From Alphaproteobacteria bacterium (lineage in GTDB: Bacteria; Pseudomonadota; Alphaproteobacteria; UBA828), in the NCBI GenBank assembly GCA_965214705.1, contig OZ243972.1, positions 1 through 64,000 of the forward strand: DNA of 64,000 nucleotides. Reading direction: 5' to 3'. Numbering within the stretch: position 1 is the stretch's first letter; the number at the start of each line of letters is the position of its first letter. The notes below the pieces were generated by a model. It worked only from the letters and a program-made list of their open reading frames with translations, did no database searches and was not told the DNA's origin. Both the position numbers and the translations under genes were made by a program. Shown in pieces: positions 40,737 through 42,442 of the stretch.

Positions 40737-41061
40737 GGGCACCGGCCGAACGAACGGGAAAATACAGGAGGTTCCGACGTGGTCGGACGCGGCCGCGGAG
40801 GATGCCGGGCAAGGCGTGTGACCGGGCAAGAGTTGGGTCGCCGCTTGGCACCGTTCTACAGATGGGTCCCGCCTCCCGGAACGTCACCACCGCTTGGATG
40901 CGGTATTGGGGTCACGGAGCCGGCAAGCGCCGGAGTTCCGAACCGGATAAGAGCTGAGCAGCGTGGCGGATCGCTGCGTGGAAACGACGTTCTGCCTGGA
41001 CATCGGCCGCGGATTCGAGTGGAGAGATTGCGAATGCCATTGACGTAGATGAAGCCGGGCC
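40737..41061 (+). ncRNA. Putative bridge/seekRNA of the IS1111 element
   Basis: Segments matching the target (GGCAAGAGTTG, CCGTTCTACA) and the circle junction (GGTATT, ATAAGAG); exact RNA ends unknown. Confidence 0.7.
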
Positions 41062-42442
41062 TTGCGGAGAGAGCTCATAAGAACTCCTGCCGTAACCGCC
41101 ACTGCCCCACCTGCCAGGGTCTCGCCGCCAACCTCTGGAGCGAGGAGCGCGCCGGGGACATCCTGCCGGTGCCCTACTTCCATGTGGTCTTCACCCTGCC
41201 CAAGGAGGTTGCCGCCATTGCCTTCTGCAACCGCAGGGTGGTGTTCGACATCCTCTTCCGGGCCGTCGCCGAGACCCTGCGCACCATCGCCGCCGATCCC
41301 CGCCACGGCGGCATGCGCATCGGCGGCACCGCGGTCCTCCATACCTGGGATCAGAAGCTCCGCTTCCACCCGCACCTGCACGTGGTCGTGCCCAACGCGG
41401 GCTTCGACGTAGACAGTGGCGAGTGGAAGACGGGGAGCACCACCTTCCTCGCCCCCGTCAAGGTCCTCGGCAGCCTGTTCCGCCGCCTCTTCCTCAAGGA
41501 GCTCGCCCGCGCCCACGGCCGGGGGGACCTGGAGTTCCACGGCACCCTCGCCCACCTCGCCAATCCCGGCGAGTTCCACGCCACGCTTGCCGCCGCCCGG
41601 GCCAGGGACTGGGTGGTCTACGCCAAGCGGCCCTTCCGCGGGCCTGAGCAGGTCTTCCGGTACCTCTCGCACTACACGCACAGGATCGCCATCTCCGACA
41701 GCCGCATCGTCTCCTTCGACGGCGAGACGGTCTCCTTCCGCCACCGAAAGCCCAAGGCGCCGGGGCAGAGAAAGCCGCGCTACGGCATCGCCACCGTGAG
41801 CGCCGACGAGTTCATCCGCCGCTTCCTGAGGCACGTCCTGCCGGACGGCATGCACCGCATTCGCTACTTCGGCATCCTCGCCAACGGCTGCCGCGCCAGC
41901 ACGCTGGAGAGAGCACGCCAGGCTCTCGGCGCCCTCGGCTGCGCCGCCCCCGAGGGAAGCGTGGACGGCGCTCGGGCCGAGCCCGACGAAGAGCCCGAGA
42001 TCGGCACCGCGCCCGTGGCCTGCCCCCACTGCGGCGGCGTCATGCGCCTCGTCCGCGAAATCCGCCGCCGCCATGAGCCCCGCTCGACGCGCGGCCCGCC
42101 GGCGCTGCCGCCGACCCACAGGGGGAAACCGTGAGACGCCCGCTCGCTTCGGCCCCGCGCAACGGCGCCAAAGCGCCGACGCACGACCGAACCTGTCTCC
42201 GCTTGAGCCGGGCTGACAGCCCTCGGCTCACACCCCGCTCAGTCCTCGCAGCGTGCGCCCGCATGCCTGCCGAAAGACCGGCGCGAGCGTCGATTTTATG
42301 CGCAACTCTGCTGCCGGTGGATGCCGCCTGACGCTGACATCAGCGCACTTTCCACATAGCTCAACTTCGCCTCTCGTGGCCCGCGGCTTCGTTCAAAAGG
42401 GTTGGGCAGGCTCTCGAGAGAGAGCCTGCCCAACCCTTAACC

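Follow-up and report, generated by a model that had tools for sequence, protein, structure and literature searches.

The closest described relatives of the system treated here are IS621 and those insertion sequences (ISs) of the IS1111 type whose guide RNA, a bridge RNA or seekRNA, is encoded in a 3' non-coding region. For IS1111-type elements of this kind, it has been stated as a rule that the segment matching the top strand lies 5' of the segment matching the bottom strand in the seekRNA (Siddiquee, 2024; PMC11187229), and bridge RNAs have been predicted in the right end of 93% of IS1111s (Durrant et al., PMC11208160). Members of the IS110 family with a downstream non-coding region are mentioned by Siddiquee et al. 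(PMC11187229) as well. We analysed a stretch of 64,000 nucleotides (hereafter the window; contig OZ243972.1, positions 1 to 64,000 of the forward strand) from an alphaproteobacterium of the lineage UBA828, and conclude that its positions 39432–41081 very probably represent an active or recently active IS110-family IS, the 3' region of which encodes a bridge (seek) RNA of ∼ 165 nt at 40798–40964.

The element shares with the IS1111 group that has a 3' seekRNA (ISEc11, ISPa11 and ISKpn4; PMC11187229) the long non-coding region downstream of the transposase gene, the position of the segment complementary to the top strand 5' of the one complementary to the bottom strand, the sub-terminal inverted repeats with short terminal extensions, and lineage-specific targets with natural retargeting through a few guide changes. 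It differs from that group in the size of its transposase (398 aa versus 330–350 aa, as judged by the published range; PMC11187229), in its perfect sub-terminal repeat of 6 bp versus 7–17 bp (PMC11208160), and in having Glu at the first acidic position and a shifted Pro, so that by the published criteria it is not a textbook IS1111 member. With IS621, as described in PMC11208160 and PMC11208158, it has in common the four guides, of which the left ones pair with the bottom strand and the right ones with the top strand, the inclusion of the core in the guides, the core dinucleotide flanking the inserted element and, as predicted for the element, the DEDD plus Ser chemistry. Unlike IS621, in which the RNA is encoded 5' of the gene in the left end, the element carries its RNA 3' of the gene, has the guide order reversed in both parts of the RNA, uses AG rather than CT as the core, combines a long right target guide (8–10 nt) with a short left one and has donor guides that lie outside a simple internal loop.

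An earlier note on this DNA, made from the sequence alone, took the locus for a variant RNA-guided recombinase with a reversed guide order. The data support an IS110-family recombinase guided by a bridge RNA or seekRNA, in which target and donor guides can both be read and the right guide comes first in either loop. They do not support the novelty of the variant; the reversed order is what has been published as normal for IS1111-type elements whose non-coding region lies 3' (PMC11187229). The locus adds no new principle and is a good natural example, not a new mechanism. It is nevertheless a natural data set of rare completeness for bridge or seek RNAs encoded 3' of the transposase gene, which have been studied less, as the guide RNA, its main target (70 empty and 19 occupied copies) and sister variants with changed guides that match other targets are all present in a single genome.

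Boundaries, copies and target sites of the element

The empty target CCGCTCTTCAACTCCTGCC, an exact 19-mer, is known from 68 copies in the genome, two of which are in the window (at 6126 and 15369), and this delimits the insertion as exactly 1650 bp on the forward strand, placed between the C and the A of CCGCTCTTC^AACTCCTGCC. The element starts with AGATACC at 39432 and ends with CTCATAAG at 41081 (its 5' end reads AGATACCATGAGC and its 3' end GAGCTCATAAG), and comparison of empty and occupied site copies confirmed both the target and the circle junction proposed in the earlier note. Insertion is site-specific and leaves no target duplication beyond the shared core. The non-coding parts comprise 108 nt upstream and 345 nt downstream of the transposase gene, and the perfect sub-terminal repeat ATGAGC/GCTCAT is 6 bp long, with extensions of 7 nt on the left and 3 nt on the right. 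The whole genome (three contigs, 7.9 Mb) contains 14 full copies with 99.9–100% identity, full-length variants with 97, 96, 92 and 86% identity, three copies split by another insertion and one 3' fragment with 89% identity.

The gene split by the insertion encodes an IS91-family (Y2) transposase, and the break lies within its zinc-finger codons. With a slightly shorter search pattern, 70 empty and 19 occupied copies of this IS91 site were found in the genome; the occupied copies represent 8 host haplotypes, 4 of which are common to empty copies. The independence of the 19 insertions is only partly established, and gene conversion or in-trans mobilization of the composite element may account for some of them. 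The host element, in which a tyrosine-recombinase gene is followed by the IS91-family Y2 gene, is present in ∼ 89 copies in the 7.9-Mb genome. One 800-bp haplotype around the target is common to 58 of the 70 empty copies, which indicates a very recent expansion of the host element.

Guide segments and their pairing

All four guide segments claimed in the earlier note are found where it placed them, namely GGCAAGAGTTG (40825–40835) and CCGTTCTACA (40851–40860) for the two sides of the target, and GGTATT (40902–40907) and ATAAGAG (40947–40953) for the circle junction, and its match counts, 10/11 (right guide) and 8/10 (left guide), are correct. The left match is real and covaries with its partner, with the qualification that its first three letters, CCG (40851–40853), form the end of stem P2 and are invariant in all relatives; they therefore belong to the scaffold, and their match to the IS91 flank is incidental. 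The left guide proper is TTCTAC (40854–40859) followed by AG (40860–40861).

At the IS91 site, the right target guide matches at 9 of 10 positions, with one rA:dC mismatch, and the left guide has one mismatch and one wobble; in both the target part and the donor part of the RNA the right guide stands 5' of the left guide. The tolerance of mismatches suggested in the earlier note is a reasonable reading of the 19 natural insertions at a mismatched site, which are its sole basis; IS621 is reported to tolerate some natural mismatches as well.

Covariation of the guides with their DNA partners

Relatives were collected as 80 loci from one-genome-per-species contigs, with 40–56% protein identity. 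A profile of the RNA region of the reference element matched the 3' non-coding regions of 35 out of 55 relatives at E ≤ 1e-4, and in the resulting alignment conserved blocks alternate with variable islands located exactly at the two target guides. For the tests against flanking DNA, left ends were located by AGA[TA]NC[CT]ATG and right ends by CAT plus the letters of the left donor guide (LDG); these tests started from 57 loci, namely 55 relatives together with the reference and the 86% variant, and used the 29 in which all landmarks were present. Locus L025, whose contig ends 3 bases past the element, was left out of the right-guide test. The longest complementary run between the right target guide (RTG) and the right flank averaged 7.04 in the 28 cognate pairs versus 3.48 in 748 non-cognate pairs, and runs of at least 7 were seen in 20 of the former and 14 of the latter (permutation p ≤ 1e-4). 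Similarly, the left target guide (LTG) was identical to the last six bases of the left flank at a mean of 3.69 positions out of six in cognate pairs versus 1.71 in non-cognate ones (permutation p ≤ 1e-4).

The donor guides behave in the same way. The 5-mer of the right donor guide (RDG) that follows hairpin P3 is complementary to the five left-end bases after AG at 26 of 35 loci, with a G:T wobble allowed at the first position, and its classes follow those of the left end (GGUAU/ATACC, GGCAU/ATGCC and GGGAU/ATCCT). For the LDG, the right end was located without it, by the CTTG box and then CAT, and the LDG triplet was the same as the right-end triplet in 20 out of 22 loci, which had six different triplets (permutation p ≤ 1e-4). 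Covariation of guides with targets across homologues had been named in the earlier note as a check, and, as far as can be read from the aligned relatives, all four guide segments covary with their DNA partners, which argues that the four are more than chance matches.

The donor guides also bear on the alternative of a short seekRNA system, in which only the target-binding part would be functional RNA, the ends of the element would be found via the flanking target sequence, and the GGUAU and AUAAGAG matches would be incidental. Such a system would be in line with the tested IS1111 members, whose main species is an RNA of 82–96 nt with only two target matches (PMC11187229), and with the placement of the donor guides outside a simple internal loop, where GGUAU overlaps the 3' strand of hairpin P3. 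It is opposed by the identity of the LDG triplet to an independently located right end in nearly all of the relatives tested, by the correspondence between RDG and left-end classes, and by the donor part, which equals the target part in conservation and pairing (96.2% of cells paired in stem P4). We therefore regard a short seekRNA as improbable and favour a bridge RNA that includes both the target and the donor guides.

L085 and L089, two relatives from different genera, share the target GGCCAA^AG-TCGAGCTAAG. In L089, the right guide is the cognate one with three transitions, which result in two rA:dC oppositions and one wobble; the rA:dC opposition is of the same kind as that of the reference element at the IS91 site. 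A handshake-like role of the AU that follows the left guide (AGAU, compared with the element start AGAT) was considered and rejected, as relatives with AGAA still have AGAT at their left end and there is no covariation.

Conserved structure of the RNA

A hand-drawn structure with stems P0–P5 served as the seed of a covariance model (R1). On an alignment based on sequence only, this structure had 97.5% of cells paired in stem P1 and 95.8% in stem P4. [quoted passage not shown] The G-U pairs occur on the forward strand, which argues for an RNA of that strand. The guide columns are the most variable ones in the RNA, with a column entropy of 1.89 bits for the right guide and 1.73 bits for the left guide (six bases), compared to 0.44 bits for P1 and 0.06–0.32 bits for the AG that faces the core. 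From this covariation, the region is predicted to encode a non-coding RNA with loops for pairing with both the target and the element ends. With its matches in 63 of 64 loci, the scaffold model allows automatic reading of guides and targets for a large subfamily, that of the ∼ 395-aa transposases with Glu as the first acidic residue.

In the RNA-library runs, the shares were small (0.04–0.07), and contigs of four runs cover the region at 85–99% identity; such contigs cannot show transcription, ends or strand. They break off at 40834, 40860, 40886 and 40922, that is, near the guide edges, as would relatives with other guides.

In two relatives, a second match to the RNA model was found a few hundred bases downstream of the first one (2673–2842 and 3039–3208 in L057; 2785–2961 and 3145–3311 in L052), and in a third, L046, the two matches are on opposite strands (2809–2978, forward, and 3431–3601, reverse). 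These second matches may be orphan or tandem copies of the bridge RNA.

Natural retargeting

Other insertion sites, which the earlier note proposed to compare with the guides, agreed with the right target guide in two variants from the same genome. The six versions of the 3' region found in this genome are nearly identical save for two short islands. The 86% variant has AATAGGCGTT in place of the reference GGCAAGAGTT and TTCCAT in place of TTCTAC, so that its target guides read AAUAGGCGUU and UUCCAU as RNA. It is inserted in an IS21 istB gene at GTCCAC^ACGCCTAT, a site whose empty copies read GTCCACAACGCCTAT; its right guide is complementary to AACGCCTAT, and TCCAC is matched by its left guide if one wobble is counted. 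In the 97% variant, the guides are those of the reference. It is inserted at GGAGATCC^AACTCTTGCCCG, a site that also exists as an empty copy and shows a perfect 12-nt match to the right guide together with the two bases 5' of it (40823–40834). According to our own reading of the motif, this site appears to correspond, in antisense orientation, to Walker A codons in another istB gene.

Metagenome relatives extend this pattern. The two with 95% protein identity have the reference right guide and the left guide UUCUAU and are located inside an IS91-like gene; their left flank, CTCTAC, fits the left guide better than does CTCTTC of our genome. The three with 93% identity have one base changed in the right guide and a different insertion site. 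No perfect copy of the guide-specified 16-mer was found in 49 genomes of the same order or in the genome itself, and we can therefore propose only tentatively that the guides evolved on an IS91 lineage encoding F-Y-N-S-C-R, a view that is partly supported by the metagenome relatives, which sit in the L-Y-N-S-C-R variant.

The guides specify conserved codons of other ISs, those of the IS91 zinc finger and of IS21 istB, so the element lives mainly inside the ∼ 89-copy IS91-family element. It is a parasite of other ISs (of IS91-family and IS21-family genes), which is relevant to the ways in which mobile elements restrain one another. ISEc21, an IS110-group element whose guide specifies conserved DDE codons of IS3-family transposase genes (PMC11187229), is a precedent for such hunting of one IS by another, although its non-coding region is 5', its guides are in the opposite order and its targets differ.

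At least five further sets of guides with this RNA architecture are present in the same genome (e.g. at C1:2643475, with sites on C3 and C1). Three of these are in full elements that have AG at both junctions and flanks matching the guides.

Evidence against the guide RNA and the role of chance

In a scan of the genome, every position was scored against the 16-mer specified by the guides (six bases on the left, A, a purine and eight bases on the right). No sites scored 15–16, three scored 14 and 115 scored 13, the latter including the 70 IS91 sites, so that the IS91 site (13/16) is among the best 118 of ∼ 15.8 million positions.

Several observations weigh against the presence of a functional guide RNA. 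None of the three 14/16 sites and of the ∼ 45 other 13/16 sites in the above scan is occupied; with ∼ 48 equally good or better sites empty, part of the target choice is left unexplained by the guides, unless opportunity plays a role. Matching by the left guide is weak, with only 2 of the 6 left-flank bases fitting where the 97% variant is inserted and often only 2–4 bases in the relatives. The RTG failed in L089 (a run of 2) and in L057 and L095 (runs of 4), and 9 of the 35 RDGs do not fit the left end. Of the 57 loci in the flank tests, 28 were dropped (17 without RNA anchors, 5 without a left end and 6 without a right end), and the independent rule for right ends found none in 18 of 40 loci, the reference among them. 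A scan for promoters and terminators in the linear element found none, an Rfam scan gave 4 weak matches, all far below the gathering scores (the best one with 27.1 bits versus 59), and single-sequence folding of 40780–41000 was no better than that of shuffled sequences (z = –0.33) and thus uninformative in this G+C-rich sequence.

The folding result also speaks for an alternative in which the matches would be due to chance or to DNA-level signals, such as transposase-binding sites, and the protein would choose the target. So does the finding that two of the four matches, the 8/10 left match and the 6-mer with a G-U pair, are by our own arithmetic not improbable when taken alone, as opposed to the 10/11 right-guide match and the exact 7-mer ATAAGAG. 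Nonetheless, this alternative is already contradicted by the guide–partner and structure tests: three permutation tests of guides against their partners gave p ≤ 1e-4, the compensatory changes and G-U pairs are strand-specific, and nearly identical proteins with different guides are found at different targets among the variants. We consider it scarcely credible, and retain the RNA-guided reading in what follows.

Proposed mechanism and the core dinucleotide

By analogy with IS621, ISEc11 and other members of the family, the RNA, with its two guide-bearing regions, would be made from the 3' region and bound by the transposase. A recombinase of the DEDD type (here E-E-D-D) plus serine would use this RNA to join the circle junction CTCATAAG-AG-ATACC with the target, after which strands would be exchanged at the two-base core. 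The same analogy suggests a circular intermediate with a promoter at its junction. Across the joined ends, TTGCGG-N17-TACCAT agrees with the promoter consensus at 8 of 12 positions and is a candidate for such a promoter; at the matching place of the right end, CTTGAC is found in 21 of 22 relatives.

The core shows an asymmetry between the two junctions. All 27 genome-contig relatives and three other elements of the same genome have AG at both junctions, and the right guide of the relatives ends in CU opposite this AG, which identifies AG as the core of the family. In the reference lineage, the right guide ends in UU and the empty targets have AA. We compared 11 insertion events: those at the IS91 site of the genome itself (in the major host haplotype, in three further host haplotypes or contexts, and of the variants with 96% and 92% identity), those elsewhere in it (the 97% variant, the 86% variant and the 89% fragment) and two metagenome sites; the independence of some of these events is presumed only. 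The left junction reads AG in 10 of the 10 events that have a left end, and the right junction reads AA in 9 of the 11, the exceptions being TA in the 92% variant and one missing base in the 86% variant. The loci with this AG/AA polarity are from the genome itself and from L101, L015, L016, L018, L102 and L106–L110. Thus, the G must be of donor and the A of target origin, so that the second core base is in every case inherited together with the base 3' of it.

In IS621, the top strand is reported to be cut 3' of the core, and cuts placed in this way would give a top-strand product with the opposite arrangement. A 2025 preprint argues for mainly top-strand insertion from another IS110 element. 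It is possible, though on the sequence data we would not count it as likely, that in the family with reversed guide order and a 3' RNA exchange of the strand retained in the surviving product takes place on the 5' side of the second core base, or that this product is of bottom-strand descent. The asymmetry may reflect a shifted cut, a bottom-strand-derived product or a one-base core. If this proposal is true, the AG/AA asymmetry would be a natural indicator of the place and the strand of exchange in the reversed-order bridge systems. It provides a testable handle on the geometry of strand exchange and is the one lead at this locus that could teach something new.

The transposase

The transposase matches the Pfam domains PF01548 (DEDD_Tnp_IS110; E = 6.3e-08) and PF02371 (Transposase_20; E = 8.2e-12), both above the cut-offs, and the NCBIfam model NF033542 ('IS110 family RNA-guided transposase') with 174.4 bits versus a cut-off of 140. 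The protein search yielded thousands of homologues of ∼ 395 aa (383–416 aa). E23 (in VAVEIS), E82, D123, D126, S309-G310 and KTDRID are invariant in all 34 aligned homologues (52–93% identity), and the G..P....SG motif has its Pro shifted (GLTSVPWASG). The earlier note was right in seeing Glu as the first acidic residue of the RuvC domain: in a profile comparison, E23 aligns with the canonical Asp of 'GLDVHK' in an annotated transposase of the ISSso6 family, and the first position of the tetrad is acidic without being the Asp of D-E-D-D. This is no private oddity of the element, as its invariance in 34 of 34 homologues makes it a trait of a large subfamily and not of a single copy. A sequence search of the Protein Data Bank (PDB) with the transposase returned only IS621 and ISCro4 chains and no solved structure of a reversed-order system. 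Only the C-terminal domain was matched, in which the nucleophile motif S309-G310 and KTDRID align with those chains, so that this search did not place E23.

Table 1. Positions of the element, its guides and the neighbouring features in the window.
Feature	Position	Strand	Basis or remarks
Whole insertion sequence	39432–41081	+	Occupied site compared with 68 empty target copies
AG at left junction, core dinucleotide of the family, here from the donor	39432–39433	+	Empty target has AA
Right donor (RD) ATACC, paired by RDG	39434–39438	+	Covariation in relatives
Left sub-terminal inverted repeat ATGAGC (partner GCTCAT, 41073–41078)	39439–39444	+	Relatives keep ATG.G / C.CAT
Transposase gene, 398 aa; acidic tetrad E23, E82, D123, D126; Ser309-Gly310	39540–40736	+	Pfam, NCBIfam, homologue alignment
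Bridge/seek RNA scaffold (covariance-model match)	40798–40964	+	Model R1, 138.9 bits
Stem P1, 5' strand, closing the target-binding loop (3' strand, 40865–40873)	40813–40823	+	99.3% of cells paired; 5 pairs change on both sides
RTG GGCAAGAGUU; last UU faces target core AA	40825–40834	+	Complementary to AACTCTTGCC
Inner hairpin P2 of the target-binding loop	40836–40852	+	93.4% of cells paired
LTG UUCUAC plus core AG	40854–40861	+	Same sense as left flank
Hairpin P3; 3' strand overlaps RDG	40889–40904	+	86.7% of cells paired; 3 compensatory pairs
RDG GGUAU, complementary to left-end ATACC	40902–40906	+	Classes in relatives
Stems P4 and P5 between the donor guides	40910–40944	+	96.2% and 89.8% of cells paired
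LDG AUAAG plus core AG	40947–40953	+	Same sense as right end ...CATAAG plus AG
TTGCGG, possible –35 box of circle-junction promoter (with TACCAT, 39435–39440; spacer 17)	41062–41067	+	Conjectural
Right end: repeat GCTCAT plus left donor AAG	41073–41081	+	Sequence reading and comparison with relatives
Left target flank CCGCTCTTC; CTCTTC (39426–39431) faces LTG	39423–39431	+	
Target core AA plus right target CTCCTGCC	41082–41091	+	
Empty target copy in the window	6126–6144	+	Second copy at 15369–15387
IS91-family (Y2) transposase gene split by the element	39243–42134	+	Pfam Zn_Tnp_IS91 and Y2_Tnp on the 3' part
Tyrosine-recombinase gene upstream of the IS91-family gene	38196–39236		Pfam Phage_integrase

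Neighbouring genes and rearranged copies

Just upstream of the host element, an open reading frame of 1324 aa (34187–38161, forward strand) with TrwC relaxase and AAA_30 helicase domains encodes a conjugative relaxase.

Each of the three split copies of the element (C2:518993–523402, L020; C3:1713790–1718199, L017; C3:687405–691814, L019) carries a 2760-bp insertion that starts with GTAAGCGGTA and ends with CCGCTTAC, at three different positions within the element. This insertion is another IS, nested inside the IS110-family one. At locus L009 (C1:1873052–1874865), the full element is followed by a repeat of its last 164 bp (element positions 1487–1650) and then by the normal right flank; the extra piece begins within hairpin P5 of the RNA region.

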